DNA from: Paecilomyces variotii
Lineage: Eukaryota
DNA length: 64,000 nt
Reading direction: 5' to 3' (one strand)
Assembly: GCA_004022145.1 (NCBI GenBank)
Contig: RCNU01000007.1
The position numbers and the translations under genes are program-made. This document shows, one piece after another, positions 8,315 through 32,509 of this stretch (the stretch's first letter is position 1; each line of letters begins with the position of its first letter). A model generated the notes under the pieces. The model was not told the origin of the DNA, did no database searches, and saw only the letters and a list, made by a program, of their open reading frames with translations.

Positions 8315-9795
8315 TCACTTTAATATAGCCTCTATAATGCCTACTGGGGTCCCTGGCGCCTTCCAGACTTTAACTAGCTTTAACCCTGAAATATCAAGCA
8401 GACGCTCAAAATTCTTCTCTGTTCGCTCCGTCCCACCGAAAGTCATCATAGCCTGGTCCATCCAAGCGGCAAGCATGCTACTGCCGACTTCCGGGACGAT
8501 AAACTCGGTAATCAATACCCGTGACTTCTGGCGATCCATGGATGCAGCGAGGTTCTGGAGGATACTCTTGCTTTCAGACTCGGGCCAATCGTGGAGAATG
8601 CGGCGGAGGTAGTAGACGAGAGCTCCTAGAAAAGTAAAAGTCAAGTGTTGGTAATTAATCGAGCCTTGTGATGGAGGCGATGATTGAGACGACGACGTAA
8701 GCTTACCTTTGACCGGCTGAGGCTGGAAGAAGTCATGCGTCATGGCCTCAATACCAGTACGAGCAAGTTCGTCCTTTGCTTCCGCGACAACGCCGCTTGA
8801 TCTTGCAAGATAAACTTGCCTTTCACCCCCGAGCAGTTCTCCTTGATCTGCTGAAGAATATGGCCCCGACCACCACCGACATCTACGATGGTAACTCTAT
8901 CATCTTCGGCGTCCTTAGCCAGTTCCAGGGCGAAAGGATAGATGCCCATAGTAACTTGACCGGAGTCCTGCGCGACCATAGCCTCATTGAAGCGAGTGAA
9001 TCTACTGGGAATTCCAGAGAGGAACTCGAACATGATATTTCCCTCGCAGCCATGGGCGTAAGTGTATGGGTTGTGACGCGTAGTAATATGATCCTTCCAG
9101 TTGTTCTGAGCAAGGAATTCATAATTCTTTACCATGGGAACTAGAAATTCATCCGCCCTACTGTGTCGTCAACGATGGATATCCTACAACTTTATCGGGG
9201 GCACGACCTACGTTGATGTGAAGACAGCATTTAGCTGCGGGACCAAATAGGCCTCAGACAAGCTTGTGTGCGAGTATGTCTCCTCTGCCGTCTCGAGGAA
9301 AGGTCCGTAGACTGTCAGAGCACGCATCAGACGGACTAGAAGGGTATTAGCAACATTTTTCTCGCTCCGATATGCTCAACCAGGCTGGTAGGCCCACTAA
9401 GTATTTCCTTGTCGAGACCCGTTTTCGCCGAGATCTCTGCAGCGCTTATACTCTTGCCGCCTGCTGGGATAGCATGGAACACGCCAGCCGCCAGCAGCGT
9501 CCGAACTGCTCCTATTTGTGCCATCTAATTGAATATTAGTACTATAAAGTGTAAGGGGACAATATCTTATTGAAGTGCTAAACTGCTCTCTCTAACTTAC
9601 ACACTCGAAGTTGGCGAAGAGCTCATCAGTCGGTCCTCGGATCCTCTGCAGAAGCCGCATTGTCTTGAGCATCAGCTCATACCTTGACTGTTCGGCATCC
9701 AAGTTAGAAGACGTCTCGACATATTTTTCTGCTGCTGCAGTCACTTGACGCAGTTCATTTAGAAAATTCTCTTGCGAGATCGTGTAGCTTCCCAT
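8315..9795 (-). pseudogene. SAM-dependent O-methyltransferase (Methyltransf_2 family), apparently frameshifted
   Basis: Multi-exon gene from ATG 9795 (MGSYTISQ). Motifs IVDVGGGRGH, FILQDQ, HDFFQPQPVKG and YYLRRILHDWP. The frame breaks at ~8790-8797: after LQDQA the expected VVAEAKDELARTGIEAMTHDFF lies in another frame with no intron available. Confidence 0.75.
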
Positions 9796-11718: not shown

Positions 11719-13065
11719 TTAGGCAACTAACTTTTCGTGCGCGTCCCAATGTTCATCTAATTCGCCCTCCTCAGCCTGTTGGATCTTCCCCCGAACAAAC
11801 GCGACGAGATCGTCCTGTTCTTCTTGGGTGAGGAGCTTGATACGATCTTCGATGGAAGTACGAGGTCCATAGCGCCATTGGTCAATAAAGGTCCAGTAGA
11901 TATTATCGAACCCGTAACTGGATGTCGCCGCCAGGCAGAACCAGAAATCGCCGTTCTCAAGTGACCGGGCCATTCTGAGCGAAAGACGCTGGTGCTCTGA
12001 GAGGTCACCTCGTTGAATCATTTCATTTTCTTCGTCTTGAAGGGCTTGAATGAATAGGTGGTGCCGCGGACGGTACTCCTCCCAAAATTCCGTCAGGTCG
12101 TCCCACTCATCCGGATGCTTGAGGAGGAGCCACCAGGGAGAACAAAAGGTCAACTCGGCCGGAGCGGCGTAGCAGTACTCCCAGTCAATGACCCCGCGAA
12201 TGTTCAAGTCTGCGTCAACAATCACATTGGTCGGACGCAGGTCATCGCAATAAAGGGGGAATGGGCCTTCATTGTAGGGCGTCGAGAATTCCTTGGCGAT
12301 CTTGAGAAATAGCTGGCGTGCCACGTATTTGTTTCGACAATCTTCCTCATTCACCACGGCATTATTCCGCTGTGTTCGGAGATGGGTGATATGCATTTCA
12401 GCCAGTGCAGTGAAATAGGATCGCGCGGTCTCGAAAGCCTGCTGCGGTAGCGCCTTCGGGGGATAGTTCCCGCAGGAAACCAGTTCGTTCATATTGAAAG
12501 TGATTGGTCTCTTACTAGCAATCCAGTTCCCCGATCTGTCTTGACGGATCGCGCCAATGCGAGAAAACTGACATCGCGATAATTCAATCAACACCCTGGC
12601 CATCTTGCGGTAGACAAAGACCAAAAACGTGCAGTCGATGTCCGGTTGTAAGTGAATGGGTATCCTGGCGTCAGATGATCTTTTCAGATGATCCGACAAT
12701 CGCGTTCCATCCACAAATGACAGTACCATATACGGCCCTATTTGTGAGGAGCTCCCAACCGTGAGGATTTGGGGAACAGGAATTGATGTGTGTCGAGCGA
12801 GGTAGGACATGACCATGTATTCGTCGTTAGTCTTCTCATAGCGGAAAACGCTCTTGCCAAGGATCGGGAAGCGAATAATGCTCTGTAGTCCTTTCAATCG
12901 ATAACAGCAGTTGAACGAGCCCGAGCATAGATACTCATATTCTACCTTGACGCTAAAGCGATCCGTAAGTTCTTGGACTGTCATCGGGAGGCTCTCCCGT
13001 AACTTGCGAACCCAGCTAGCAGCCGTAAAGCACGCCTTATCGTATTGTATGGCGTCATGATGCAT
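11719..13065 (-). CDS. Aminoglycoside-phosphotransferase (APH) / kinase-like family protein
   Basis: Intronless ORF, likely start MHHDAIQY (13065). Motifs GSFNCCY, IIRFPILGK, TSIPVPQI and the Brenner-type CDDLRPTNVIVD...GVIDWEYCYAAP. Confidence 0.88.
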   Translation of the reverse strand: MHHDAIQYDKACFTAASWVRKLRESLPMTVQELTDRFSVKVEYEYLCSGSFNCCYRLKGLQSIIRFPILGKSVFRYEKTNDEYMVMSYLARHTSIPVPQILTVGSSSQIGPYMVLSFVDGTRLSDHLKRSSDARIPIHLQPDIDCTFLVFVYRKMARVLIELSRCQFSRIGAIRQDRSGNWIASKRPITFNMNELVSCGNYPPKALPQQAFETARSYFTALAEMHITHLRTQRNNAVVNEEDCRNKYVARQLFLKIAKEFSTPYNEGPFPLYCDDLRPTNVIVDADLNIRGVIDWEYCYAAPAELTFCSPWWLLLKHPDEWDDLTEFWEEYRPRHHLFIQALQDEENEMIQRGDLSEHQRLSLRMARSLENGDFWFCLAATSSYGFDNIYWTFIDQWRYGPRTSIEDRIKLLTQEEQDDLVAFVRGKIQQAEEGELDEHWDAHEKLVA

Positions 13066-14459
13066 CGCTCGCTTTTTTGGTGGAACGTATTCTGACTGAC
13101 AATGTTGAGTATCTGGGTGGGAATTCAAGACAAGTCCATAAAGCTTGATTAGGTATTCAAATATTATTGACAGGATAGTCCCAAGCACTAAAAACGAGCT
13201 TAGAATCATGTGACTATTAACAGTCTAACCAGATTCAGACTAACAAGACCACCGTGGGCAGCTTGAATCTCGGTCACAATTGAGAGCTGGTATCTGGAAG
13301 CTGGTTGGGAGAAGAGACTTCATGGATAGGTAGATAATTCCCCCAAGATCTTCTCGCAGATTCTGGATCCTCATAGCTAACGCACTTGCTAGGTTGTGCT
13401 AAGTACTGTTGGTTCTCAAGTGCCCAAGTCCAGAATGCACACACCAGATAAGACCTGTATAGCCACCAATGACCAATAATTCCATCGATATCATTGTATC
13501 TGGTAAGATGGGTGTTTTCGCTACCTTACATGGCATATCCCTCTAACGTTAAAAGTTTAGGCATAGTAATCCTGATTTGAAGGAGGTAATAATTGGTCAG
13601 GCGAATTCTCTGCTCGTACTTATCCGTCGGTAGACCTGCTCCAGTCCATACCTAACATGGACTAAGTCCCTAGATGGTTAAGGTTACGGAACGGGCGGAA
13701 GTTACCTAGTACATCCTATATACTCCACCAACGGGGTTTATTATTTCTTCTCTTTTCTTTTCTTTTGAAGTTGCGGATGATGCCAACACAGCCGTTAAGG
13801 ATACCAAGAGGCTGATTAACCAAAGGAAAGGTAGTTAGTTAGTTACCAATTAAATCACTACAGAGCGACTGTCCTGTATGCTTGCTTTTGATGGGAACGG
13901 CTCCAAACTTCACCCTTTAAGATTCTGTCCGACTCAGGAAGCAGCATCTGCAACGTATGCTTATTTATCTTCGCATCGATGGAACGAATCCAAGACACAG
14001 TTATATAGCAACATGAACCAGGTACTTCTGGAAGTTATAATAATAGCACAAAGTAGGCCCATAGGGAAGTTCTTTCGGGGAGCTAATCACTCGCAGTTCT
14101 TCAAAAGTTCCTGCTACTGAGCTAAGTCAATCTCTATCGCAGATTGTCAACGATAATTTATTCCTATTCCGAATCCAGCATTTATGCAGTGACTTCTGGC
14201 ACAGCCAGATGACTGGGGGCGTCCAATGTAAGATACTAAGGCAAGCAACTACTCCGCTTTTCCGAACTAACACCTCGCTGCCCCACTATAAGTACCGTGC
14301 AACGGCGGAGTAACTATAGAGCCGTATGGTATATCCTGAACCAAGATATAAAGGAGAATCGGATTGCTTTAATGACACTGTAGCTCTTTTCTGTGTTATC
14401 TTCCAAGCTCCTGATATTTTGTGCCCTAGAACACTAGATTCTAGATCTAGAAATACAAC

Positions 14460-15824
14460 ATGGCTTTCTACACCAAGGAAGTTATCGCAGCTCTTGATTC
14501 AATCCACCTAGAGAAGCTTAACGGCAATGAAGTAGAACGCCTACAAGTACGCGCTGCTGCACGTCGATTGCTTTCTCGTTTGGAGACGCCTTACGAGCGC
14601 GCCTGGGGCTTTAGCTTCGAACATCCTGTGGTATTTGCCGCTCTACAGACTTTTATCGATGTGAGCCTTTGGGAATCCTGGACTGCTGTTGGGGGTGGTG
14701 AGAAGTCTATCGACGAATTGGTCGAATTAACCACTCCTAAGGTCGATACAAATCTGCTACGTACGCTTTAATACTTACCTTCTTGTTGTCTATCAAGCTT
14801 ACAACGGGTATATAGGTCGTTTCTTTCGCCTGCTAGCAACCGTCAACATAGTTGAAGAGACGAGAGAAGACAGATTCAAACCTACCTTATTTTCATTAGC
14901 TATCGGAGACGAGAGTCCCAAGGTCCGCGCCGCGCTTCAAGAAGGGTATGGATACTCCGAGCAACTATTCCACGCTGCAAGTGAGCTAACGGTTGGCCAG
15001 AGCATATCAATTTATTGCTGCTGGCCATAACCTGCCAAAGTACCTGGCAAAGATCTCTTATAGGGAACCTACAGACGCGAACGTCAATAATTACTCGGAC
15101 AGTGATCCAGACGGCCTTAGCTTCTTCGGGCGATTACAGAGAAGCCCCGCTTATTATGAGACCTTTACTGAATTCATGCGGGGGTGGACGGCATGGAAGA
15201 CACCATGGACGACGGTATACAACACGGACAAGCTTCTGGAAGGCGCCAACATAAGTGCTTTATCTCCTCTCGTGGTTGATGTCGGTGGCAATACGGGAAT
15301 TGATCTTTCCTATGTCCTTGCCAAGCATCCAGGTCTTCCAGCTGGATCACTCGTCTTGCAAGATCTTCCAGAAGTAATTGCCAATGTCAAGGTCGATGAA
15401 AGGATCAAGACTATGGCACATGACTTCTTTTTACCTCAGCCCGTGCAAGGTAAGGCTGCACTTAAGAATTCATATAGGTAGTTTTGTATATACTCACACC
15501 CAGCCTGTAGGGAGTCGTGCTTACTTCATGCACGCCGTCCTCCATGATTGGCCGGACGACAAAGCGAAACAACTGTTGTCGAATACCAGAGAGGCTATGG
15601 TAAAGGGTTACTCCAAGCTTTTCGTATACGAGATTGTCCTTCCACCAACAGGAGCCAGCATTAGTCAAGCCACTATGGACGTCAATATGATGTCGTTGTT
15701 ATCGGCTTCTGAGAGGACTCAAAGCGCGTGGGAGAGGCTATTGGGCGATGCTGGTCTCAAGATTATTGAGATTTGGCCAGACCCTCAAGAGTGCGAGATG
15801 CTCATCGAGGCTGAGGTCGCGTAG
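14460..15824 (+). CDS. SAM-dependent O-methyltransferase (Methyltransf_2 family), 4 exons
   Basis: Exons ~14460-14760, 14816-14945, 15001-15449 and 15511-15824 splice in frame. Motifs VVDVGGNTG, LVLQDLP, AHDFFLPQPV, YFMHAVLHDWPD and ERT. Confidence 0.88.
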
Positions 15825-16410: not shown

Positions 16411-18794
16411 ATGAGAATATCTATCGCGTGTCTGGTATTGTTGATGGCTAGGCTTTACGGGGTAATGGCAAGAGGTAGGTATCTTCTTGCCACGAACTCT
16501 ATCATCCTTAATACTAACAGCAGTACTGTCAGAAGCTCTCCATACCGCCGCCATTCACTATCATGAGAAGAGCCGTACCTTAACCCCCCCAAACAATTAC
16601 AATGGCTGGGTCAACCCTGAAGACCTCCCTGCTATGCCACAATGCATTGCTCAGCAGAATCAATCCGCCTGGTTGAATGCCATAACGGAGTGCACGGCCA
16701 AACAGTGTACCTCATACTTTGGGTTTATTTGCACCCATCAGCAATGGCTGACTGAGCTCTGCTGTCTCACCATTGCATTTCCCTCTGATGTTCTCGAGAG
16801 TTATCTCCCCTACTGCGGTAGATCAGTACTCGCCAAGGCGCAGTTGTATCTATGGATTTGGAATGTAACCGGCCGAACGTGGCTTGTCGATGTTGGCGAC
16901 GCGAACGGGCTGCAGAATCTCTCCCCAGCCTCCCTAGCTGAAGGCTATGCGGACCTGAGCGTGATCTATAATGCACCATCATGTCTGACTGGCTCGGTTT
17001 CCGCTCAGTCGATGGAACGATTTCAACATGTGGTAGCCTCCTGTATGTTCACTGGCACTACCCAACATACCGGAAATGCCGCTCGTCCTTGGGAATATAG
17101 TGAATTTCTACAGTCAATGATCGCTCTGGATTTCGAAACTGTTGGTTACGATCTCACCCGATATAGCATCAGAGACGGCGACTATATTGATAAAGAGTGC
17201 TTCTGCAACGCCTTTACTGTAGATCTAAAAAGCGAACCCTGCTTAGGGTCAGGGCAAATGGACCTGACAAAGGAGCGGCTATGGATGAATGCCACTTGTG
17301 GGTCGATGTCCCTACCTGGTAACTGGACGGACAAGCTCAAAACCACCGAATTTGCGTACATCCCTATTGAGGACTGGCACTGGCCCATGTGTGTCGCGGA
17401 TATGCCGAAGCAGGTGATCGAGCTTCCTGATCAGTGTGCGACTGATGCTTGTGAGATCGACTTAGATGGTTACTGCAAAGTTAAGCGCGCAGTTGATAGG
17501 GCTTGCTTTTGCCGCGACATCAGCTACGATTCCTGCGGAGGTTTGTGCCAGATATTCGAGACCCGAATAGACTATATCAATTGGCTTCGCGACCTTTGTG
17601 GAAATGTAAAGGATTGGCATGGTCTACCTCATAACTGGCGTCAATTAGCCGCTCCCACGTCTCTCGACATGATTCCATGGCGATGGACTGTCAAACCGTC
17701 TAACTGTTCAAACAGTGCCCATATTACCCGTTTGGGATATATCAGACCAACGGAAACATGCGCCTCAAATGGATGGAAGCTCAGAAGCTTTGCTCTAGTC
17801 AATATAGCTACGTTTCTTGCTGCGTTCCTCAGCCTTCAAAAAGTTATGCGTCGAATCGCACGCGATTTTCCACGACATTCACGCCCGTGGTGTTGGTTGT
17901 TCAAGGGAATCATCATAACCGCTCTTCAACTCCTTGCAAACTGGTTCAATGTGTTTCTCGTCCAGACAACCCCTGGCTATAAGGATGTCCCCTTATTCCA
18001 ATTAATGCTCCTCTGGTGCTCAATACCTCGACCCGCCTGGCTAACAATTTTGCTGGTTGGTGTACAACCCTTTGAAACGATGAATTTCTCTGCCGCTGGG
18101 TCTTCTTTATGTGCAGAAGTGTTACTCCAGTTTGCCTCATCATATTATATGTCTACAACCATCAACTATGGCAGGGAGCATAACCTCTATCTTGGAGGTA
18201 TGGAAGGAGCGGAGAGACAAGGGCTAGCAAAAATTATGTATGATGGAGCACTCATGTGGCTCCTGAGCATTAGCCTGGCACTCGCTCAATTGGTGCGGAC
18301 TACACGTAGGATGAATCGGTTGGTCAGATTTAGTAGCCTCGATCTACTAAAGTGGCAGAGAGGCAAGCAGACAATATGGAGCATTGCGGAAGAGCTGATG
18401 ACCTAACGTTACGCACGGTTCAAGGAGAATTTCGCACCCTATTGGGTAGATCAGTGTATGAGCTCGGAAGAAACACCGCTGACAAAGTGCAAAGGAAGAG
18501 ACGATATGAAGTATGGCACTTTCTCTGTCGAAAGTCAAGATCACTGGCTTTCTCAGAAACTATTTGTGGAATTATATGCGGCTACGGTTATTTACATGTT
18601 TTTCCTTTGGATCGCGCAGTGGCTCTTCTGGGGTGTATTTCTTAAGCTTAGTTCGGAAGAGTAAGTATTTACGCACCCAGTTACTTGATTTATAGTAGCT
18701 AACCGGACTTAGGTTCTGTCCTCCTAGGCTTGGGGTTCTCGCAGTAATATGGATTGCTTTCTCAGTGGCGGGTACTATTGTTGCAGCTATTTGA
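16411..18794 (+). pseudogene. Signal-peptide, Cys-rich (CFEM-like repeats) multi-pass membrane protein with an in-frame premature stop
   Basis: Exon 1 MRISIACLVLLMARLYGVMAR, intron ~16475-16520, then a long Cys-rich ectodomain and several TM segments. TAA at 18404-18406 is followed in the same frame by RYARFKENF...MSSEETPL...WIAQWLFWGVF, an intron 18661-18711 and a last exon FCPPRLGVLAVIWIAFS...AAI-TGA (18794). Confidence 0.65.
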
Positions 18795-19077: not shown

Positions 19078-20661
19078 TTACCGTAAGCTAGAGACGTTAG
19101 TCTGGTGTAATGTTCGGTCCCCTATTGTTTCAGTTTCTCCGGCTTCAGGAGTAGCTTCCCGTGATCGGTTCAGTAATCGATCGATCGATTCCTTGACCGG
19201 CTTCCATAGGGCTTTGCGCGCATTTTGGGTGAATTTGCTTTTTATACCGCCATGCTTTGTTGCGCCTGGTGATCCTGAGTCATTCTGAACCTGAAGAGCT
19301 TCTTCTCTGGCCTTGTGGTGCAATGATTCTTCTATGACGGGGCCGTGCGTCTCACCCTCGAATTGAGCGTCCCAAGCAGCAGTGAGATCTTCTAGTCTCT
19401 GGAGTGAAAAATTGCACATTTTTTCCATCCTCTCTTCTGCAACTGGCGATAGTTTCATCCTGCCGTCCTGCAAAGTATATGCCGGCAACTGCACAAACCT
19501 TTCTACAATCTTCACTGTGTCGAGCACTACCTCTCTCTGGGCCCAGAACCACTCTTTGTGTCCCTTTCCGCACTGCTCGCACTTGATGACCTGTAGCTTA
19601 TGATGCCGGAGGATAGCTTGAGCAAGCCTTTTCGCCTTCTGGGCACCGACAAAGGGTCCGTCGGTGGTCTCGTGAATGACCTTTGTGTTAGTCCCATAGC
19701 AGTTCCCAGGCTGATGATGTCTTTTTGCTGCTGTTTCTCTAGTACAGCCGACCTTGAAAAGCCCCTTGATCTCAACGTGCTCGAGGACGTAAACTATGCC
19801 CTCCTTCTGTTCCTCCCCGGTGAGGTACTTGTATATTTCCTTGAGTACCGGCGAAGTGTCTCGCAGTGTTCCCTTACGTTGGAGAGAGGCTAGACCGATT
19901 CCTGTTATTCTAACTTCGGCCTCGTCGTGACATGAGCCATCGCTTGCCGTGGTGTGATGACTTGTGGAAAGCGTTAAATCCTCAACACTTGTCTCAAGTT
20001 CCTCGACCCTTTCGCAGTGGGTGATCTCCGGGGCTTGTTCTCTACTCGGTGCATCCCTTAGAGACCGACTAGATGATGACAAGCTATCGATTATAGATTG
20101 ACACGCCGGAGAGCTGGGGCCTTCCGTTAAAGTGATATCCAAAGTGTCTTCTATGACAATATTGTCTATGCTGTCATTTGGGCTCCTATCCGTACACTGT
20201 TCAGTAGGTTGTTCGATACTCAGCGGCAGGATAGAGGTTGCCGTGCTGCCCGCTTCGGAAAGGGACGCTATGGAACTGAAGTAATCTGTACCCGTAGCAG
20301 TCGAAGAGGTATCTTTGGATAACGAAGATGCGGCCTGCTCCCGCTGCTTCCTCCATTCGTCAAGTCGGGCTAGAGGCTTTTCTTGATGCTTGCCGCAGTG
20401 TGTAATGGTAAGAAACTCCTTAAGTTGGTGATAGAAAATGTCGGTACGAGGGCACTTGTCCATTTCTCTAAATTCAGAGAGCAAGGCGTTCGCCCGTGGT
20501 GCTTTCCCCTTGAGCCCCAGCTGGCACCTTGTTGCAGTCTTGGTGTATGCTCGACATGATGTATAGTCGGATACTTCGGGGTTTGGGAAAACGTCAATTC
20601 CCTCCTGCAGAGCAGCAAGCTCCTTGAAAATTGGATGCTCGCATGGCGTCGGTGTGACCAT
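19078..20661 (-). CDS. T5orf172 / Mug113 (GIY-YIG-like nuclease) domain protein with N-terminal Cys/His motif
   Basis: 527-aa intronless ORF. GIVYVL...LFKVGCT...KR...C...CEQCGKGHKEWF is the T5orf172/MUG113 signature. N-terminal CRAYTKTATRC...HCGKH. Confidence 0.8.
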   Translation of the reverse strand: MVTPTPCEHPIFKELAALQEGIDVFPNPEVSDYTSCRAYTKTATRCQLGLKGKAPRANALLSEFREMDKCPRTDIFYHQLKEFLTITHCGKHQEKPLARLDEWRKQREQAASSLSKDTSSTATGTDYFSSIASLSEAGSTATSILPLSIEQPTEQCTDRSPNDSIDNIVIEDTLDITLTEGPSSPACQSIIDSLSSSSRSLRDAPSREQAPEITHCERVEELETSVEDLTLSTSHHTTASDGSCHDEAEVRITGIGLASLQRKGTLRDTSPVLKEIYKYLTGEEQKEGIVYVLEHVEIKGLFKVGCTRETAAKRHHQPGNCYGTNTKVIHETTDGPFVGAQKAKRLAQAILRHHKLQVIKCEQCGKGHKEWFWAQREVVLDTVKIVERFVQLPAYTLQDGRMKLSPVAEERMEKMCNFSLQRLEDLTAAWDAQFEGETHGPVIEESLHHKAREEALQVQNDSGSPGATKHGGIKSKFTQNARKALWKPVKESIDRLLNRSREATPEAGETETIGDRTLHQTNVSSLR

Positions 20662-22263
20662 GTTGAAGTGAAAACAACCACCATGTGATGGGGAGAAATA
20701 ATGAGAGTTGCTAGTCCTTGATCACGGATAGGCCTGCCAGAGGCGACCTGTTAAATGGACAAGGAAAATGTACGTCGGCCGGCATCATCTACTTACAACC
20801 GAAGGCATCATGCGGTATATGCATTTGATTTCCTGCATATGCAGGAACTGTGGCTTATTTAAATAGGGATGTGACTCCGTCTATCTAGCTGGAATATCAT
20901 CGCCATATGGAGAGGGTATTCCGATGGCTGATCAGTGTTCCGTGATAGCACTATTCCGGAAACGAAAGAACCTCTCATTGGGACTCGGTGTTTGAACTAC
21001 TACTGGTTGGGTTGTCTTATCCTGTACTTAATCCTTGACAACTTCTCTTTGTTTCTTTTGTGTGAACTAATAACTAAAAGTGGGGTATAGATAATCGCGA
21101 CAGGAAGAACCCTACAACACACTCGAGAGAACTATTGGCCGCCGCTAATCACCGCACCCCAGCACCACCTAAACTACTCCGTATTCCTTGCAAAAGTCCA
21201 CTGCGCCCCAACAGTAGTATCTAAACTTGGGACAACCCCAGGTCGGGCACTGCAGGATGCACCAGGTCTTATGCAGACCCGAAGCCCATTATTCAATGAA
21301 AGAGTATTGTACTGTAGTTATCATTCGTTCTAAGGTAGTGGGGCTCCCGAAGTCAGGTCCCGTCGTCCCGATAACTATGGTATGCAGGTGCCAGGACCCC
21401 TACTCAGTAATTGGTATATTTATTATACGGAGTAAGCTGATAAGTGGTTGGAGAGAGAGTATATTTTTGGCGCGCGGGTCCAGAATGGGGGCCGATACGA
21501 AGTTAGACCATTGGGATGAATGAACTACGCCAGGATAAGTAGCGATCTCCGTTCTTAAAAAGACTGTCTTCCTCGACCTTCTTGAACGCGTGGATAATGC
21601 CAGCTGTTTTTTTCGCCAACAACTTCAGATATTTGATCTGTGATCTAGCGTTATAGTCGATTTACTTGGAAACCTGCTCTGTACTCGTCACGGATGGAGA
21701 AAAATCCTGACCAGATTTATTTTTCTCTGGCAAGTGTCCGGAGTTCCTCAAAGGAGAAAAAGCCAATGACGAAAAAGAGTTCTGACATTTCCGTCCCGAA
21801 GCCGAGAACTGGACGCTTCGAAAACTAGTCGATAAATCAAGAGTGACAAATGAGAAAACTGTACAGGTATTCTGGCTTTCGAGCAATGGTCCCAGAAAAT
21901 ACGTAGGCAAAGTTGTAAGTCGATAAGGTCATTGTACGCTTTACCTAAATTAATCGCATCCTACTTAGTTTCCCGACTATACCAAAGAGCAGGCTCGATA
22001 GCAACTTCGGCATCTGAGGGTGTCGAACCATGTTCCACAAATGCTAGACGATGCAGTGCACGAACTTGATAGGTTCTTCCGGGAAGCTCGGGCATATAGC
22101 CACATTGAAACAGACACTAGCTACCTAAAAATGCTACTGCTAAAAGCCAGGTATAAAAGCAGTCATTCGTCTACTAGTATCGTTTATATGTGACAAACTA
22201 TGCTCGCACTAGCCGGTCTCTGGTTTCTATCAGTCGACCCCCATCTGCCTCTGTTCCCGGAAG

Positions 22264-24606
22264 CTAATTCAAGGGAGTTTTCATGAAATCTTGGGCAACA
22301 TCAAGCATCACTTGAGCGCACATTTCCACCGTATCCCAATCCTCCTCATACGCCCACACCGGCAATTTGATCACTTTAGAGTGGAATGCAACGGCTCCAG
22401 GGAAATCGGCAGCTCTCCATTCTGCAACATATGCGTCTGGTGAATACAAATGACCTAAGATCTCCCACGGACGTCGGTACAGGGCCTCATCGTAAAGGGG
22501 TTTAGTTGAACCGGGGATATCGATGTGCTTCATCCCACGCGCCATCACTTCTCGCACATAGATCTCACGGGTCAACCCGGCCGGAGCCTGGGCTTCGTCG
22601 AACCGGAAGATCAGAGCGTACCATGCCGACTTCGCACCCGGTTCGAGCACGGGCGCCTTCAAGAAAGGAATCTGGGCAAGTGCGTCGATGAAGTGGGCTG
22701 CGCATTGCGACTTGCGCTCAAGGATTATTGGAAGTTTCTCCAATTGGTTGTTGGCAATGGAGATCGCAAGCGGGTGCGCCCGGTTCTTCAGACCGGCGCC
22801 CGTAACAGCGAAATCTTGAAGGGGGTGATCTTTGGGGATCTCCGCCTTGCATCGCTTATTGTAATGGCCGTGGATCAGCTGGCGATAATAAACTTCCGGA
22901 TGGGGGGTCAAGGAAACTCCTCCCTCGCCGCCGCTGAGTACTTTGTCGCCCTGAATAGACCAGGCGGCACCATCGCCGAAAGTTCCAATTTTCTTCCCAT
23001 TGATTGATGCACCATGGGCATGCGAACAGTCTATCAATCCGTCAGTTCAGCCATGGCTTATGATAGGAGTAAATGCTTAGTACTTACCTTCAAGCAGAAG
23101 AATACCATTCTTGCGGCAAATGTCAACAATTTCCTCCATAGCACATGGAACACCCCACATGTGGGTAACAATGACGGCCTTAGTCTTCGATGTGATTGCG
23201 CTGGAAATCTTATTTGGGTCCATGTTGCCGGTTTCAGGGTGGGCGTCAACGAACACCGGCTTCACCCCCAAATGCATGAGTGGCGAAACGGTGGCATGAA
23301 AGGTGTAGACAGGAACGATGACCTCGTCCCCAGCGCTGAGCCCAGAAGCATAATAAAGGGCGTGTAGTGCATTTGTGCCCGAGTTGTGCAACAGGGCATA
23401 GTGACCTGGGGTATCATGGAAAGTCCTGAATGCCTCCTCAAAACGGCCGAAAACACCCCCATTATTGTAGATGCTCAGGGTATCGTGGAGCTGTCTGTCA
23501 ACGGCGCGCTCGACATCTGGTGTTACCTTTGGCCATGACCACGCCTTCGCGAGCGGATTCAGTGCCGACTTGGACTCGATTTGATCACTTCCCACCCGAT
23601 AAATCTCGTCAACAAGTTGCATCACAGCAATATCTCTGTCCAGATCCCAGTTGTCGGTATTGTTATTCTCGATGAAGCTGACTAGGCCTCGCTCAAGAAG
23701 AAGGGAAGACGGCTCCTGAACAGTATATTCCTCTTGTGGTGAGAGTCTACCGGTTTCATCACGCAGGGAAAGACGGACGAGGTCTCCATCCAGGGTCAAA
23801 ATGCCTGCCTCTCCAATGACAGAGACTTTCTCTTCATTCCTTGCGCCAGAGCGAGATATAACGATCGTCGCGTTCACAGCATCGCCAAATTTGACCGAAA
23901 TGTGAGCAGTATCATCCACATCATAGTCTCCGTGACGGGTTTTCATCAGCGCGACATGCTGGACTTCAAACTGTCGACCAAAGAGACCAATGAGCTGATC
24001 GAGCATATGGTAGCCCATATCAATCACAACACCGCCTCCGGCAAGTTCCTTGTGTGCTCGCCAACCTTCCGCAAGCTCGGCGACATCAATGGATTCGACG
24101 ACCTGGACAGAACTGATCTTTCCAAGCAGAGGAAGCCATCCTTCCAAGGCGTTGTATCTTCGGGAAAATCGTCGCTGACAGAGCACACTGACTTTAACAC
24201 CATGTGCTGCGGCAAGCTTCTTAAGTTCCAACGCTTCGCTGCTGTTGCAGGCGACTGGCTTTTCCTTCAACACATTTATACCGGCCTGAAACAACTGAGG
24301 CAGCACCTTCGAATATTCATGATGGGGGATCGCCACGTAGGCCACTGACGGCGTGGCATTGTTGCGAAGAAAATCGTCCACTCCGGGGTAGATGGGAAGA
24401 TTGTCGATAGGTGCGGTCTTCACGAAAGGATCCACGGCGCCGGCAATGCGTACCAGACCTGCCTTGGAAAGCTTCAACAATGAGGGAACAGCCTTCTTCT
24501 TTGTTCTTTGACCCAAGCCCACTATCAAGCAAGATTCCCCTTGGGGATTGCCATTGGACTGTCTGCTAAGACGACGCTGTTCACGGAATTGGAGAATTGG
24601 GGACAT
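22264..24606 (-). CDS. Bifunctional Gfo/Idh/MocA NAD(P)-dependent oxidoreductase fused to DegT/DnrJ/EryC1/StrS PLP aminotransferase (~761 aa)
   Basis: N-half: IVGLG, VAIPHHEY, LKEKPVA, QRRF and WRAHKELAGGGVVIDMGYH. C-half: NSGTNAL, GDEVIVPVYTFHAT, PVFVDA, AVIVTHMWG and SIQGDKVLSGGEGG (PLP lysine). One 57-nt GT-AG intron (23087-23031) restores the canonical LLEDCSHAHGA. No stop lies between the domains. Confidence 0.92.
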
Positions 24607-26485
24607 CGTGATGGGAGGAATATGATTCAACACGTACTCTAGAACTAATTTCCTTGCTGGCTTGAAATTGTTCAGGACCTTTGCTGTGTCTAACAAACAT
24701 AGACATACTTATACTTTACCGAGAAGCTTCTGGAGGAACATCTTATTCAGAGGAACAGGCATCATACTTCGTACAAAATATTACAGTGATCATGTAATCA
24801 TCAATCTATCGGAAACAGCCACAGAACGCACGTATAGAACTGTAACTCTGATGTCCCAGAAACCTCGAGGAATTCTCATGTGGGTCTTACAGTGAGCTAT
24901 TATCCTTCCTCTGCAGAGTCTTGTAGCCCAGACCTCCGAGTCATAGGACTGACAACCTGCTTTTCCATCTCTCGCGCACTGCAAGGGCCTAAACTCAAGG
25001 TACTCAATTGTTCACTTAACCATACATGTCTAACCACATGGCCCCTTCGGTGGAGTATGATCTTCCGTAGTCAGTGAATCTATTGGGATATAATGTCGAT
25101 CTGGCTTACATATATTACACCGTATAATTGCGTCAATGACGGATGATGTTATGAAAGCTTCATCAGCCGTGTTTTGAATTTGAATTTCATAGAGGGTTCG
25201 AGCTATATCTCTCCAGCTAATCAGCTAATCGGTCGTCTTGATCCTCAGAACCTGTTGTGGATGTGGCAGAGCTGAGGAATCACTGCTTGCCCGGCCTGGC
25301 TGGCTGAGACGTGCAGCTACATCGCACTACTACAGAGAATAATTAGTTGGCGCTGCCAATTTCATTGGTCGTCCTCCGTCTTCTGTTACGTACGAGCTAC
25401 CTTACTTTATAACTGGGCTGAATATTCTTGACTCTGGCTATCAACTTCTACACATTCCATCTATAATTGTAAAGCGGACGGGTCTATCTAAGTAGTATAC
25501 AATAGCTTACACAGGCCTATTATGCAATCATTCACCCCTCGCCGCGTCCCACATCGCTTTACGGTGAGTGCAAGGTATTACTGTACACTGCTGGCAGGGC
25601 TTTTACCACGGATGGCAAGCAGTACGAGCTTAGGATCAACATTCTCCGCTTGACATCATCCAGTAACTCTTTTGGCAGCAGGATTGCGATTTCCTCGTGT
25701 CACTGTGCCTCCGATAATGTGCGCTGCTGTCCCCTCAGCACAGTCATTCGGGCGAATTCTGCGGCCATGCCAGGTCACCGCATCAGTGTCTCGAGAGACG
25801 CTTTTCAAACTCTTCGACGATTATACCATGAAGCCTGTCGATTGCGAGAGGAGTGCAGCTATCAGATCACTGTGTTAATCTCCGTTGAAGTCGATTAGGC
25901 CCGCCCATCGTCTCGAGACATCATCCAGCAGCTTGTCCACTCACAACTTCGACTTCTTTTCTGGTTCTATTGAAACCTTCTGATAGGAGGGCGCTTGGTG
26001 TTCTCTGATGATAGCCATTGTGTAAGCCACGTTGCTTTTGGACTATCCGAGGATACTGCGCTTACTTGAGGATAGCTGTATCACAACAATCCATCATGTC
26101 AGAAAGAAATAGCCATGCTTCACCTTGAGGCCTGGAGCCAGTAGAGGTAGCTGCGCTTAGAACACATCCTTCATGGGTATAAGGAACGTTACTACCAGAA
26201 TCTTGTTTTGTGCTGGTACTTGTAATAGACTGCATTATATTTGGGGGTCCAGTTGAAATTTTCAGTTATATGGTTAATTGACGTGTCTTCAACTATGAGT
26301 CTGCAGCTTCACACTGAAAGGCGATGTGTGAAGTATTTGCCCATATATAGACATCGGTGCCGCATGTACATGTGTGAGTTTGGTGCAATATTGATGCTCT
26401 TGGTCATGAAGCGTCGTCAATGATTATACCTAGGTACATGATTTCACCATTTATCCCCGTCATTGCAATAGTGCGAAGCAGCCGT

Positions 26486-26989
26486 CTACAGGGACTGCGC
26501 CGCAAACTTGAATGCGTTCTTAACGACCTTTATCATTTCCTCGGTCATGAAAAGTGAATCTATTTGTCCTTCTTGAGCCCACAACCATTCCGTGTGCTCG
26601 TCGGGATTCAGCTTGACAGTAACCCCCGGTTCAACTGTTACCACGTAGTTGAGTTGGATGTTGGATTTCGTTTTGGACTCCCACGTCATCGGCTCGAGTT
26701 CGCCAATGATCTCTGATACGACCTGGGAGGTCTCCTCCAGGACTTCACGCGTGACGGAGTGGGCAACAGTTTCGTCCGTGGTTTCGACGTGTCCGCCAGG
26801 AAGTTCCCAGGCGTTAGGGAAGGCTGTCTCGTGGGGAGCTCGCTTCAACAGAAGGAGAGTAGGGTCCTCCGATTTCGAATTCTGGAAGATCGCAGCGCCA
26901 ATCACCCAACGCTTGGCTGGGTTGAGGTCTTGTGGACGAGAGTGGAGGCGTTGCTCGTCCAAAAACTTGAGGGACCGTTGAACAGCCAT
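26486..26989 (-). CDS. Nudix hydrolase (167 aa, intronless)
   Basis: LLLLKRA...WELPGGHVETTDETVAHSVTREVLEETS is a Nudix box with a one-residue insertion; C-terminal VKLNPDEHTEWLW. Confidence 0.9.
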   Translation of the reverse strand: MAVQRSLKFLDEQRLHSRPQDLNPAKRWVIGAAIFQNSKSEDPTLLLLKRAPHETAFPNAWELPGGHVETTDETVAHSVTREVLEETSQVVSEIIGELEPMTWESKTKSNIQLNYVVTVEPGVTVKLNPDEHTEWLWAQEGQIDSLFMTEEMIKVVKNAFKFAAQSL

Positions 26990-27941
26990 GGCGTCGTCAA
27001 AGGTTCAGTAACGAGGTGCAATGGGCTTGGACGAGGCATTTATCCTAGAGCATGTTCCATATTCTTAAATATTGCATCAATGGGCGGTGGGGAAGCTGTG
27101 CCCCTGTTTAAATAGGTACAGTACAATATGCGCCCTATGGAAGCTATTACTTTTCAAAAAGGGAAACAAGAAAAATACTAATGCTTGTGTCCAAAGCGAC
27201 TTGTGGGCTGAAAATCTTCAGATGGAACAGGGTAAGAATGGTGAGACCAGACTACTTTCCAAACTCACGAGTACACCTGCAAGGAGGTCAGCTGTGATCG
27301 TCAAATGTGTTCATTCCATTGACAGCTCACCTCGCACAACAGGTGATTGTGGAATATTCCGTTATTCCGTGCATCAAAAGCCCACATGATATCAGGTTTT
27401 GCTGTAGAGTACAGTACATTTAGCGTACAATACACTCATACATATACGTATGTGTGTACGTACATACATACATATATCATGACTCGTTCAGCTCACCCAT
27501 CTGCTTTCTATGCAAGATCGACATGATCGACCGAGATCTCCGCGGTAATTTGCTCAGTACTTCGTACCTAGAGCAGTTGCGCCCTTGCGTGGTGGCAGAG
27601 ATCCGTCTGCATTTGTCAAGCATCAGAATCAATATTTTTGAAGTCCCCCAGCTCACGTTCTCTGTTGTCTGGATATGGTCAATCACAGTCTTGTATGAGA
27701 TCATCGAGCAATCTCTGAACTCGATTCCGCTAGGTTTCACCCTTGGCGATACTCCACTACGTGGACAATGGTTAGGAGATTGGAACTACGCACGGCAACC
27801 TCTATGTACTCCGTAAGTAGCGGTCGCTGGATATTTTAGGTAGTGTTAGTTGCATGACCAACATCCAACTTTCTGCGTCTTTCACGGGCTTGTCCTTTCC
27901 TTAGCCCCACGGTTCGCAGCTCTTTTCCTCTTCACCCCACG

Positions 27942-29576
27942 ATGACTCCCTCCGAGACGTCGCCTCTTCTCGCCGAGCAATCACCCCAGACACGGCAGAA
28001 GCACCACCGCCACCACCACGATGTGCCCCCAGATTTCTCGCCGTCCTCCGGGGAGAGTCTCTGCCTGCCGCCTGGAGACGAGGCGGTCGCTTCCGAGGAA
28101 TGCAAATTGCTTCTAACCCGGTCTGCTCCCCTGATTGTCACGTTTCTGCTCGAGTACTCGTTCACGGCGGCGAGCATTTTTGCCGTTGGCCATATTGGAA
28201 AGATCGAATTAGCAGCCACCGCAGTCGCGGGCCTCACGGCAAACATTACTGGCTATGCAATCTACCAAGGCCTCGCGACAAGCCTCGACACGCTGTGTCC
28301 GTCCGCGTACGGCGCAGGCCGGAAGGATCTCGTCGGCCTTTATTGCCAGCGCATGACCTGTTTCCTGTGGTTCATGACGATCCCGATCGCGGCCATATGG
28401 CTCTGCGCAGATCGCCTTTTGAAGCTCTTTATCCAGCCCGAGATCGCCAGGATGGCTGGGTTGTACCTCCGCGTCCTGGTATTGGGCGCGCCGGGCTATG
28501 CGGCATTTGAGTGTGGGAAGAGATTCATGCTGGCGCAAGGTCTCTTCTCGGCAACCGTATGGGTTCTGATTTTGTGCGCACCACTCAATGCAGTTCTCAA
28601 TTATCTCTTCGTCTGGGTATGTCCCCGACCCCTCAAACTTGCTGCTCAGGGTTCCCTCCAAGGTCACTGACTTGAGCCTGAAGACATTCAACTGGGGCTT
28701 TCTCGGAGCCCCAATGGCCGTCGTCATTGCCCAGACTCTGATGCCCGTCATCCTTGCCGTCTACATCACCTGCATCGCAGGATCCGAATGCTGGAATGGC
28801 TTCACGCGGTCTGTTTTCCACGGGTGGTGGCCAATGGTTCGACTTGCTCTTCCAGGGATGGTGATGGTGGAAGCCGAACTGCTCGCATGGGAGCTTCTCA
28901 CGTTGGCATCCAGCTTCATTTCCGTGGAGCATCTTGCCGCACAGTCAACGATCGCAACACTAGGTGCGATCGCTTTCAACTTTCACTTTCCGATCTCTAT
29001 TGCCGCGGCGACTAGGATATCAACGTTGATCGGCGCAGGCCACGCAGATGCAGCCAAAAGGGCAGCGAAGGTATCGATCTTGACTGCTTTTGTCTTCGGA
29101 ATCCTTGTGGCCATTCTCTTAGGAACGCTACGGAACCAGCTTCCTGCGCTTTTCACCGAAAACCCGGATGTCATCCATTTCGTCAGTGCTGTTTTACCGA
29201 TGGTCGGAGTTTCGCAGGTCTTTGACTCGCTGGCAACGTCCTGTAACGGCCTTCTCAGAGGACTGGGAAAGCAGAACGTTGGAAGTGTCACCGCCCTGTT
29301 CTGCTATTACGGGGTAAGTTGATCTTGCGTTATCTCCATGATCCCACTTTGCCCGAATCGGGAGGACATCTGCTAAGTAATCGCTCCGTTCAGGTTGGGA
29401 TTCCGATCTCATTTGCCTTGGCATTTTGGTTTCACTGGGATCTTCTGGGTTTGGCAGTTGGAACGACATTAGCTTTATTGCTAGTCGCCCTCATCGAAGG
29501 GGCCTTTATGGCGACGACTCACTGGGAGCGTATTGTAGAGGAGGCAAGCATGCGCAATGAGCCGACGGTTTCTTAG
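27942..29576 (+). CDS. MATE family efflux transporter, 3 exons
   Basis: Introns 28617-28683 and 29314-29393. Motifs GHIGKIELAA, GLATSLDTLCPSAYGAG, LALPGMVMVEAE, ATRISTLIGAG and GLLRGLGKQ; about 12 hydrophobic segments. Confidence 0.92.
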
Positions 29577-29675
29577 GTAAGGGAAGATTATCGTCAGCCA
29601 TGTACAGTAGTCGGCGAAGATATACTAATACGATGGGTGCGTCCACTTCTAGCATTCAAACTGTACTATAAACTA

Positions 29676-29993
29676 TAGGGGTAGTATTTTGAATTTAAAA
29701 TTCTTATGGACTTCATGATTCTTCGGGTTTAAATTTCGCAAAGAGAAAGTTTTTGAAATTTCGAAGTCTACTAATGAATTACGTTTAACTCACCCGATAA
29801 CCATCTTACCCTAAAAGCTAATAAGCAAAAAGCTACAATTCCTATTGGCTAATTTCCTTGCTCGGTTTCCTTGGTTTATATTTAGCCCGCCCCATATATA
29901 AGTAGTCTATGCGTTTTGAATTTCGAAAGGCAAAGGTAAAGGTGTCGGCATCTCATGAAATTTAAATCCAATCTCCGAATTGCACCACCACTA
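29676..29993. mobile_element. Possible degenerate MITE (~320 bp) with imperfect terminal inverted repeats
   Basis: Left end TAGGGGTAGTATTTTGAA versus reverse complement of right end TAGTGGTGGTGCAATTCGGA; mismatches are mostly transitions. AT-rich non-coding interior with recurring TTTGAA(A)TTT motifs. Confidence 0.25.
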
Positions 29994-30662
29994 GTTAGTC
30001 ACGACTTCGTTGTTATAGCTAGGTAGGAAACTACTTGACTAAGTTAATTATCCATAGTGAAGATCGGCTCCCAGATTATACTCCCCCGATTTCGCACAGG
30101 CAGTTCGCTTAAGAGGCCGCAAATATCCCCTCACTTCCCGGTTTTACATGTCTCGATATCCACCTCATTTACCAAAGAAAATATTTACAGACTATCTTAT
30201 TCCTAAAAAACCATCACTACATTGCCGCTTTACTATTCTTTATAGCAGAGACCTTTGTAGAGCAAGAAGGCGAACTCCCCAAAATCAACTTGCATAGCTA
30301 TCCTGATGGGGCATACACAGATATATATTGTGATGCAGCATCCGGCAGAAAGGGCCTGGCATAAGTACTCTACCAGTGACTTCCTCTCAAAGTTCAGTTA
30401 GACTGGACTAAAATGAGAGCAGTCTTGTCGCGGACTGGGGTTTATGCGTCATCTAATTCTTGTGTGATAACTACATGAAAGATATCAAGAATACTTACAA
30501 GTTAAACAACGCGTAGATCTGCGTCAGTGCGGCATCACATGCCTTTCGGTTTCGGTTGAATGATCTTCCGGACGATTTTAATGTTCCCCTGAAAAGGTAC
30601 TACAGACGCTCATCTGAAGACTAGATATTGTTTGGAAGTACCGCGTCTGGAACATCGCCAAT

Positions 30663-32509
30663 ATGTCCTTTAGCCTGTCAGTCAATTTGGACGACGCCTC
30701 AATTAGACCTCTGAGATCGAGACTCGGATGCAAAACCTGCAAGCAAGTTTCTCTTCTCTTCTTGCAAAAGGAGTGAAATATTAATCATGCCCTAGAATCC
30801 GAAGAGTCAAGTGTGGAGAAGAAAAGCCTAATTGCCTCCGATGCACCAGCACAGGTCGCAAGTGCGAGTACGAAAATCCAATTGCCCGCACGTATTGGTC
30901 TTCGGCTTCCACCTTTTCCATCCTTGACACCCCTCTGTCATTATTATCCAATGCAGTACTGCGAGAGCGTCGCGCTTTTGCCTACTATTTCCAAAACACA
31001 GCAACGTTTGTCGGCGGTGGACTGGATGTGGATTTCTGGCTCACCATCGTCCCGCAGGTCTGCCGGAGTGAACCCGCCGTGTGGGATGCCCTGATCTCCA
31101 TAAGTTCACTGTTCGAGAGTCCCGATCCCTGTCCGGATCTCGTCTCTGTACGCCGGGGACATGCTCGCACTCTAAATCAAAACCAACAAGACGCGTTAGT
31201 CTGGTATTCGCGTTCGGTATCTGCTGTTCGCCGGGGAATCGAGCGCGGTAGTGTGGACTCTTTTGTCGGATTAATCACCTGCATCTTATTTATCTGCATT
31301 GAGGCCCTTTGGGGTGGTATGGAAGAGGCTTTGCACCTCTATAGTCAAGGAGTACATCTCATACTCGCTTTACAGACCCAGAGTGCATATGCGGCTATGA
31401 CAGAAACCAAAACGTCCTTATTAAAGGATACAATTGTCCCGATTTTTATCCGAATTGGAGCCGTCACTCTCAATACCGGCGTTTCAATGAGCCCGCTATT
31501 GCAGGAAACCGAACATGAATCCGCGCCGGAGTTTACCTCCCTCAAGTCCGCACGGGAAGCCATTGTTATCCTAGCCATAGAGATCCCACTTTTCGAACTA
31601 GATTGCGAAGAATACCTAATACAGTCGCATGCCTGCCACATATCCGAAGAACTGATGAGTCGGCAGAAAGTCTTGTCAAGCAGGTTACAGAGCTGGTACA
31701 CTGCTTTCACTAACATTATGGAATCTCTTCGCACGAAGGATGGCTTATCAGCGCTGCAAGCTAGCACTGGTGCCCTTCTCCTCACTTACTATGAAATGTT
31801 ATCCGTTATCATCGGGGTCTGCGTATCGCCATTGCGCATCACCACTGACGCTTATACATCGAATTTTCAAAATATAGCCGAACAATCCCGCATCGCTTTG
31901 ACAGGTTCAGCGCGACGTGATGGTACACAACCACCGTTCACGTTCGAACTCAGTGTTGGCCTGCCACTTTGGTTTACGTGTATCAGGTGTCGTGAACCCA
32001 CAATTCGACGCACAGCACTAGCTTTGCTACGTCGAGCGCATCATATCGAAGGGCTTTATAAGCGCGACTACGCAGCCACCATGAGCGAAAGAATTATCAT
32101 GGTGGAAGAAATGTACGGAATAACGTCAAGTGCAGCCCAAAGCGTGGCCAACATTACTACACGAAAACCAAACGATGCATGCATTGAACACAAACCCCGT
32201 TGTCAAGGCAGTCGGGGCCCACACAGTCCCTTTGACATGGACTTCGAACTCGGCGCAAGTCCATACCTTCCACTTACCGATACTGAACCCAGCACTTCGG
32301 AAGCAGTGCTTATCCCAGCAGAGGCACGCATTAGACCTCTCGGCATTTTTCGGCCACGGGATGGTTATCCTCCTGAGATGACTGAGGATGATATCGCAAG
32401 GTTGAGCCTAAGCCGCGATCAGACGTTTCTACATTTCTCGCGGAACGAGCACGATCAGTATCACAATACGTGGCACACGATCCATGGATACGTTCCTATT
32501 GAGTTCTAA
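30663..32509 (+). CDS. Zn(II)2Cys6 transcription factor
   Basis: ATG 30663 ...RSRLGCKTCK / GC-AG intron 30743-30795 / IRRVKCGEEKPNCLRCTSTGRKCEY, then in frame through ERRAFAYYF...FWLTIVPQVCRSEPAVWDAL...CREPTIRRTALALL to the stop at 32509. Confidence 0.9.

Follow-up and report, generated by a model that had tools for sequence, protein, structure and literature searches.

Aminonucleotide biosynthesis genes and a candidate Paecilomyces variotii locus

The closest described systems are the pur module of puromycin biosynthesis and its homologues for A201A (AtaP10/4/7), cystocin (CstG/F/H) and 3'-amino-3'-deoxyguanosine (AdgB/C/D), in which enzymes of the same three families, Gfo/Idh/MocA, DegT and Nudix, are found together. 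Sections of one study (PMC9239236) describe an exporter in the bacterial pur and adg clusters, and the expression of the homologues adgB-E in Escherichia coli to test their role in 3'-amino-3'-deoxyguanosine formation. In Paecilomyces variotii, the three families are encoded between positions 22,264 and 32,509 of a 64,000-nucleotide stretch of contig RCNU01000007.1 (assembly GCA_004022145.1), which as a whole is referred to as the window, together with a MATE transporter gene and a Zn2Cys6 transcription factor gene. The locus is proposed, at roughly even probability, to be a fungal, gene-fused copy of the bacterial three-enzyme aminonucleotide module. As in the bacterial clusters, an exporter gene stands alongside, although it is of the MATE family in P. 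variotii and of the MFS in the pur type. The P. variotii locus also differs in having the Gfo and DegT parts fused in a gene with one intron, and the window contains no Pur3-type phosphatase, Pur6-type ligase, or methyltransferase or acetyltransferase gene of the pur type to accompany the fusion and Nudix genes.

Pairs of a Gfo/Idh/MocA dehydrogenase and a DegT aminotransferase are also the standard route to 3-amino sugars. WbpB/WbpE, the Psychrobacter pair represented by structure 7l7x, NtdC/NtdA and RifL/RifK belong to the same two families and follow the same oxidise-then-transaminate logic as the fusion protein. These UDP-sugar and sugar-phosphate pairs differ from the P. variotii enzymes in that they score lower against them than the Pur-like set does, and no sugar-pathway genes neighbor the P. 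variotii locus. Such pairs are not known to have a Nudix partner.

Gene structure of the locus

A first-pass annotation, made from the sequence alone, had reported four neighboring intact genes with the MATE gene divergent from the Nudix gene, and both the genes and their arrangement across 26990-27941 were confirmed at the same coordinates from open reading frames (ORFs), Pfam domains, joined frames and, in part, RNA:

22264..24606, minus strand: Gfo/Idh/MocA-DegT fusion gene, 761 amino acids (ORFs, Pfam, database protein, spliced complementary DNA (cDNA) contig of RNA run X6)
24606-23088, 23087-23031 and 23030-22264, minus strand: exon 1, GT..AG intron (57 nt) and exon 2 (including the stop) of the fusion gene
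26486..26989, minus strand: Nudix hydrolase gene, 167 amino acids, single exon (PF00293, E 3.5e-13)
26990..27941, no strand: predicted divergent promoter region common to the Nudix and MATE genes, from the gene coordinates
27942..29576, plus strand: MATE transporter gene, 496 amino acids, two introns (Pfam PF01554, MatE, twice)
27942-28616, 28684-29313 and 29394-29576, plus strand: exons of the MATE gene, whose joined frame has a single stop, at the end
30663..32509, plus strand: Zn2Cys6 transcription factor gene, 597 amino acids (Pfam Zn_clus)
30663-30742, 30743-30795 and 30796-32509, plus strand: exon 1, GC..AG intron (the sole intron) and exon 2 of the Zn2Cys6 gene; joined frame open

The spliced fusion frame encodes 761 amino acids with no internal stops, and in a protein database search its exon 1 was 100% identical over 99% to the 761-amino-acid 'hypothetical protein DTO164E3_9162 [Paecilomyces variotii]'. 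Residues 26-288 correspond to the GFO_IDH_MocA N and C domains of a nicotinamide adenine dinucleotide (NAD) dehydrogenase, and the DegT_DnrJ_EryC1 domain of a pyridoxal phosphate (PLP) aminotransferase extends from residue 380 on (Pfam, E 2e-38 in exon 1 and 1.1e-18 in exon 2). The protein carries an EKP motif, a D..H pair, an EDCSHAHGA motif and the PLP lysine (WSIQGDK), all of which are invariant across 14 fused homologues. The Nudix gene, located 1.9 kb from the fusion gene, encodes a protein 98% identical to P. variotii DTO164E3_9160, and its Nudix box REVLEETS lines up with those of the Pur7-like and prokaryotic operon Nudix proteins described below. The full six-cysteine CX2CX6C...CX2C motif of the Zn2Cys6 factor is complete only when exon 1 is joined.

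Similarity to a puromycin-type Streptomyces cluster

As a stand-in for the named Pur10/Pur4/Pur7, AtaP and Adg proteins, the comparison used locus L017 of Streptomyces genome G071 (G071:C8:31500-51499), found through a pac DNA search of 401 Streptomyces genomes and recognized as puromycin-type by its gene content and order:

L017, 1133-11519: in order, genes for an M28 peptidase, Nudix, Gfo, a 758-amino-acid protein without a Pfam family, DegT, methyltransferase, inositol-monophosphatase, GNAT and O-methyltransferase

This set matches the puromycin cluster. The enzymes also fit the account given in parts of the cystocin paper. The search returned pac homologues at 67-76% DNA identity, the GNAT gene of L017 being 73% identical to pac, and of the five regions around such homologues only L017 had all three module genes; L020 had the DegT gene, and L018, L019 and L021 had none of the three. 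The Pur4-like DegT of L020 (genome G317) lies on a 7.3-kb contig and is 76% identical to that of L017. No identical pac copy was found in the 401 genomes beyond one 769-bp contig. A pac primer matched exactly in that contig, from an assembly of Streptomyces griseicoloratus, and in two contigs of a Schlesneria metagenome-assembled genome (L001, L002, L003); these most likely represent cloning-vector carry-over in the assemblies. The published Photorhabdus adgB primer had no match in the genome contigs, and no protein starting like AdgB was present among 338 proteins and the metagenome ORFs.

When the P. variotii proteins were searched against the whole of G071, each of the three enzymes had its best match in the cluster. 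The DegT half of the fusion, which had six matches as a whole, scored 201 bits to the cluster DegT (next best, 87.9), the Gfo half 81.8 bits to the cluster Gfo (next, 40.8) and the Nudix 44.7 bits to the cluster Nudix, the best of nine matches (next, 26.2). Streptomyces genome G001, where the same search turned up no genes of this kind, reached no more than 44 and 42.8 bits. The likeness to Pur10/Pur4/Pur7 claimed by the first-pass annotation thus stands insofar as all three enzymes are homologous as a set; their closest kin, however, are found elsewhere, in a prokaryotic operon family.

The Pur-like proteins also scored above every solved structure (phmmer). The DegT half scored 202.9 bits to the Pur4-like protein and 137.7 to the best solved DegT structure, 7l7x, followed by BtrR (136.7), AHBA synthase (104), WbpE (81.7) and NtdA (65.4), with 2-deoxy-scyllo-inosose aminotransferases at 136.7 bits. 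For the Gfo half, the values were 82.8 bits to the Pur10-like protein, 48.3 to the best solved Gfo, 33.2 to WbpB and 30-32 to inositol dehydrogenases, and no chain named NtdC was among the 46 solved chains that it matched (E 0.01). The Nudix scored 44.5 bits to the Pur7-like protein and 30.2 to the best solved Nudix, a small margin. In the reverse direction, the best solved matches of the Pur4-like and Pur10-like proteins reached 153.5 and 62.6 bits (the latter a scyllo-inositol dehydrogenase), below their scores with the P. variotii halves, and that of the Pur7-like protein, NudI, reached 41.3 bits, only marginally lower. By these sequence scores, the Pur-like set is nearer to the three enzymes than are NtdA, RifK, WbpE/WbpB, the inositol dehydrogenases and all other solved structures. 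A closer kinship with kanosamine, inosamine or nucleoside diphosphate (NDP)-sugar enzymes, which the first-pass annotation had named as the competing grouping, was not borne out, since the labelled solved enzymes scored lower than the Pur-like set, in this case the stand-in proteins.

The same comparison bears on the unlikely alternative that the module carries out C-3 amination of a sugar nucleotide or sugar phosphate, either from UDP-N-acetylglucosamine (UDP-GlcNAc) to UDP-GlcNAc3N, as GnnA/GnnB and WbpB/WbpE, or toward kanosamine, as NtdC/NtdA and RifL/RifK, in which case the Nudix would release an amino sugar 1-phosphate or trim the pool. The general use of Gfo and DegT pairs for 3-amino sugars is in its favor. 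So are the best partial matches in NCBIfam, which are sugar-type and all far below the cut-off (PseC, 158 bits; archaeal UDP-GlcNAc 3-dehydrogenase, 40 bits), no NCBIfam model matching the fusion or the Nudix above it. Structure 7l7x, which is the top solved match of the DegT half, comes from a UDP-sugar pathway for a diacetamido sugar, according to its source paper (PMC8040287). Against it, NtdA, WbpE, AHBA synthase and WbpB all score below the Pur-like proteins, and the window has no glycosyltransferase, nucleotidyltransferase or sugar-dehydratase neighbors of the locus.

A further alternative, which we regard as quite improbable, is that the substrate is another ribose-bearing compound or a polyol (NAD, ADP-ribose, a nucleoside diphosphate, a nucleoside monophosphate, or inositol, converted to inosamine), giving a product other than a free aminonucleoside or an amino sugar. 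The best NCBIfam match of the Gfo half, inositol 2-dehydrogenase (45 bits, below the cut-off), the scyllo-inositol dehydrogenase matched by the Pur10-like protein and the score of the 2-deoxy-scyllo-inosose aminotransferases to the DegT half are consistent with it, but all such scores are below the Pur-like ones. In addition, no inositol-pathway gene adjoins the locus, the ORF for myo-inositol-1-phosphate synthase being more than 20 kb away (52972-53883).

A family of prokaryotic Gfo-DegT-Nudix operons

An alignment of 14 fungal fusion proteins, used to scan metagenomes, matched 558 stretches, among which 283 were confirmed relatives, and the best 80 loci were kept. Most of these are prokaryotic operons with a Gfo gene (about 340 amino acids) followed by a DegT gene (about 420) and a Nudix gene (about 148). 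The operon loci are L037-L114 (for example, L043:9971-12686), on low-GC contigs. The closest kin of the DegT half are the standalone bacterial proteins of about 420 amino acids (47-54% identity over the full length, 370-432 BLAST bits), and the operon Gfo and Nudix proteins score 100-130 and 35-55 bits, respectively, to those of the window. The Nudix gene lies within 1.5 kb of Gfo-DegT in 68 of the 80 loci, and in 61 it is directly downstream on the same strand, with stop and start codons mostly overlapping; another six loci were too short to judge this linkage. Members of the family also include a Gfo-DegT-Nudix triple fusion (P0170), Nudix-Gfo fusions (P0193 and P0200) and a DegT-Nudix fusion (L100, 1177-2883). 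A thymidylate-kinase-family domain is fused to DegT in P0111 and to a second Nudix in L088 (3078-4220) and is adjacent in L101, and P0249 joins an APH kinase domain to Gfo.

Operons and P. variotii locus have the same three functions in tight linkage, and Gfo-DegT and triple fusions exist in the family; the operons differ in their separate genes with overlapping stops and starts, in their housekeeping setting and in having no transporter or regulator alongside. The 105 neighboring ORFs of 12 long loci are mostly housekeeping genes (IF3, SmpB, GreA, tRNA synthetases, RNase Y, SecA), and four of the 12 (L043, L071, L087, L110) have a GreA-like gene downstream on the other strand. This setting, amid translation and housekeeping genes of small, low-GC genomes, favors the ribose or polyol alternative. 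The sugar alternative is not favored by it, as none of the 105 ORFs is an NDP-sugar or polysaccharide gene, and no glycosyltransferase, nucleotidyltransferase or sugar-dehydratase gene adjoins, except for one MraY-type gene 4 kb away. A tightly coupled and often fused Nudix would, moreover, destroy an activated sugar, and the linked or fused partners are kinases of the thymidylate-kinase and APH families.

In an exhaustive search with the Gfo half, the number of cluster representatives fell from 7317 at E 0.001 to 680 at 1e-10 and to 36 at 1e-30, and a word-based search with it found few standalone relatives (27 proteins). The named database members of the operon family belong to Patescibacteria/Parcubacteria/Kaiserbacteria. 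In PADLOC, the sole hit was a generic model for candidate Nudix proteins, PDC-S07 (window Nudix, 43 bits; an operon Nudix, 74 bits); the Gfo proteins drew no match and the DegT proteins none of note. A full-text literature search, which did not extend to subscription journals, found no function described for the family, which is apparently widespread and undescribed.

One metagenome locus, L067 (3964-13575), joins the operon family to aminonucleoside clusters at the level of sequence. Its Gfo and DegT proteins are of the operon type (56% and 61% identical to those of L037, compared with 34% and 36% to the Pur-like proteins), and its Nudix is 50% identical to the Pur7-like protein. Beside them are genes for a phosphatase resembling Pur3 (28%), a protein resembling Pur6 (28% over 161 amino acids) and an ATP-grasp ligase, which makes it a candidate peptidyl-aminonucleoside cluster. 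The pairing of operon-type Gfo and DegT with Pur7-, Pur3- and Pur6-like genes argues against the ribose or polyol alternative. Genes for an AAA_28 kinase-like protein, an FAD monooxygenase and a second Nudix are also present in L067.

Phylogeny of the Gfo and DegT halves

The Gfo tree comprised 82 rows. A 75% redundancy filter left 28 of the 48 operon sequences, and of 98 standalone representatives every third was taken; the other rows were 16 fused proteins, the Gfo half of the window, one Pur10-like protein and three generic Streptomyces outgroups. The DegT tree comprised 50 rows, including 24 of 70 operon sequences (70% filter) and L067. In both trees, the generic Streptomyces enzymes were outermost, followed by the Pur-like clade and then by the operon and fungal sequences together, a grouping with SH-aLRT support of 89 (Gfo) and 96 (DegT). 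The core fungal fusions formed one clade in each tree (13 rows in Gfo and 10 in DegT, SH-aLRT 97 in both), outside of which fell the fused proteins P0170, P0189, P0222 and P0232 and the divergent named protein P0053 (in the DegT tree, also P0047). Because the fungal DegT clade is nested among the prokaryotic operon sequences, the module probably reached fungi from bacteria. The trees are quick searches with long outgroup branches and hold no function-labelled sugar enzymes, and as sequence trees they indicate that the Pur-like clade is akin without excluding all other families.

Conservation in other fungi

Fused homologues are encoded by Aspergillus pseudotamarii (78% identity), Phellopilus, Gymnopilus, Conoideocrella, Periconia, Leucogyrophana and many lichen fungi. 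In Penicillium rubens, the homologue P0007 is a 472-residue model without the Gfo N-terminus and an internal DegT segment, and could be either a gene-prediction error or a copy in decay. Orthologues of the Nudix are found in Aspergillus caelatus (81%), A. tamarii, several Penicillium species, Trichoderma, Pyrenula and others. The fusion and Nudix genes are co-located in several of these fungi, as in P. variotii (DTO164E3_9162 and DTO164E3_9160): in Pyrenula the locus tags are adjacent (Q9227_006971 and Q9227_006972), in P. rubens the pair is on one 9.86-Mb contig, and three further pairs agree in the size of their longest contig (19560, 8882 and 5725 bases). In eukaryote-like metagenome loci, a Nudix gene with 41% identity lies 0.9 kb from the fusion gene in L108 and L109 (one organism, 99.5% identical) and another with 39% identity lies 1.1 kb from it in L039.

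The co-conservation of all four genes, which the first-pass annotation had raised, holds for the fusion and Nudix genes, which are co-located in several fungi, and does not extend to the MATE and Zn2Cys6 genes in the flanks of L039 and L108/L109: no homologues of either were found in the 5-10 kb flanking the fusion gene in L039, L108 and L109 (tblastn). It is conceivable, if somewhat unlikely, that only the fusion and Nudix genes form a unit and that the other two are chance neighbors of unrelated function, given these empty flanks and the fact that MATE and Zn2Cys6 genes are very common in fungi. However, the MATE and Nudix genes have a common 0.95-kb predicted divergent promoter region, L039 has a different transporter, of the MFS, adjoining its fusion gene, and an exporter is likewise part of the bacterial pur and adg clusters, as PMC9239236 reports. 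A weak hint in the same direction comes from run X6, whose contigs cover the fusion, Nudix and MATE genes with empty intergenic bins.

Transcription and splicing

Nineteen of 24 public runs carry part of the stretch, and four of these runs were aligned to it; their contigs attest transcription and splicing and do not rank expression levels. A contig of X6, a cDNA metatranscriptome of a food fermentation sample, skips exactly 23031-23087, the intron of the fusion gene. Both MATE introns are skipped in a contig of X9, the second also in X6, and the Zn2Cys6 intron is skipped in a single low-depth contig of X9 (depth 3.9). These spliced contigs support the gene models of the fusion, MATE and Zn2Cys6 genes. 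In X6, loose contig ends carry T-runs at 26253 and 26259, which probably mark the 3' end or poly(A) site of the Nudix mRNA near 26253-26259. In runs X2 and X3, few or no bins are without coverage, including the intergenic ones, and the fusion intron is retained, so they may hold DNA and were not used as evidence of transcription. Separately, one low-depth X9 contig (depth 5.9) skips 23041-23097, an interval that has GT..AG borders when read antisense to the fusion gene, on the plus strand, and that is offset by 10 nt from the sense intron; it may reflect a spliced antisense transcript or an assembly quirk.

Proposed pathway and its weight

If the locus is a copy of the bacterial module, the Gfo/Idh/MocA half would use NAD+ to oxidize a nucleoside triphosphate at its 3'-hydroxyl. 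The best guess for this substrate is a purine nucleoside triphosphate, with ATP and GTP indistinguishable. The DegT half would then transaminate the 3'-keto group with PLP to form a 3'-amino-3'-deoxynucleoside triphosphate, from which the Nudix would remove pyrophosphate to leave the 3'-amino-3'-deoxynucleoside monophosphate, a step that would also disarm a chain-terminating nucleotide. An unlinked phosphatase would free the nucleoside, and the best guess for the product is a 3'-amino-3'-deoxy purine nucleoside. Export by the MATE pump and activation of the genes by the Zn2Cys6 factor are plausible roles.

Several observations weigh against this reading. The comparator is a stand-in and not the named Pur proteins themselves, identity to its enzymes is low (DegT 36%, Gfo 26%, Nudix 28%), and the margins of the Nudix over solved structures are small in both search directions. 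The closest kin are uncharacterised operons, to whose DegT proteins the P. variotii half is 47-54% identical, compared with 36% to the Pur4-like protein. These operons stand amid housekeeping genes, unlike the usual antibiotic cluster, so the chemistry of the family could differ from that of puromycin, and six of the 80 loci (L044, L048, L078, L080, L082, L103) have no Nudix gene despite flanks of at least 600 bp. To these are added the sugar-pathway origin of 7l7x, the empty flanks of L039, L108 and L109 with respect to the MATE and Zn2Cys6 genes, the lack of a Pur3-like phosphatase in the window, and the fact that no report of an aminonucleoside from P. variotii was found in the literature.

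Reading the locus as an aminonucleotide module would provide a testable candidate for a fungal route to 3'-amino-nucleosides. In metabolomics tables within PMC5479552, obtained by liquid chromatography-mass spectrometry, 3'-amino-3'-deoxyadenosine and its aminoacyl derivatives, including the homocitrullyl one, are listed for Cordyceps, and a passage of a November 2025 review (PMC12648386) places 3'-amino-3'-deoxyadenosine among the purine nucleoside antibiotics without an identified gene cluster. The literature search found no fungal aminonucleoside cluster or Gfo-DegT-Nudix system, within the limits that compound names bearing primes are poorly searchable and that subscription journals were not covered. 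Being small and without a polyketide synthase, nonribosomal peptide synthetase or terpene core, the locus would probably be missed by routine cluster mining. A broader proposal, held tentatively and at less than even probability, is that this is the missing locus for fungal 3'-amino-3'-deoxyadenosine-type nucleosides, fused and of bacterial origin, and that Gfo-DegT-Nudix is a widespread, unrecognised nucleotide-modifying pathway of Patescibacteria-like and other prokaryotes. If the proposal is true, 3'-aminonucleotides would be common microbial metabolites and not a Streptomyces curiosity.

Other open reading frames in the window

The first-pass annotation had recognized no Pur3- or Pur6-type gene, and this agrees with tblastn searches, in which the Pur3-like protein had no matches in the whole window (E 0.01) and neither did the Pur6-like protein, the 602-amino-acid protein of L067 or its ATP-grasp ligase. 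Likewise, no Inositol_P domain was detected by Pfam in the 24 window ORFs scanned. A 646-amino-acid ORF at 16466-18406 was considered as a Pur6-like or ligase gene and rejected as unrelated. An APH-family phosphotransferase ORF (11719-13224, minus strand) and two O-methyltransferase-like ORFs (8315-8896, minus strand, and 14990-15824, plus strand), one of which seems fragmentary, were also rejected as cluster members, their similarity to the operon-linked APH kinases and to a DmpM-like protein being generic only. The APH-family and O-methyltransferase-like ORFs are upstream neighbors of the locus, as is a 547-amino-acid ORF with a T5orf172 domain (19078-20721, minus strand).

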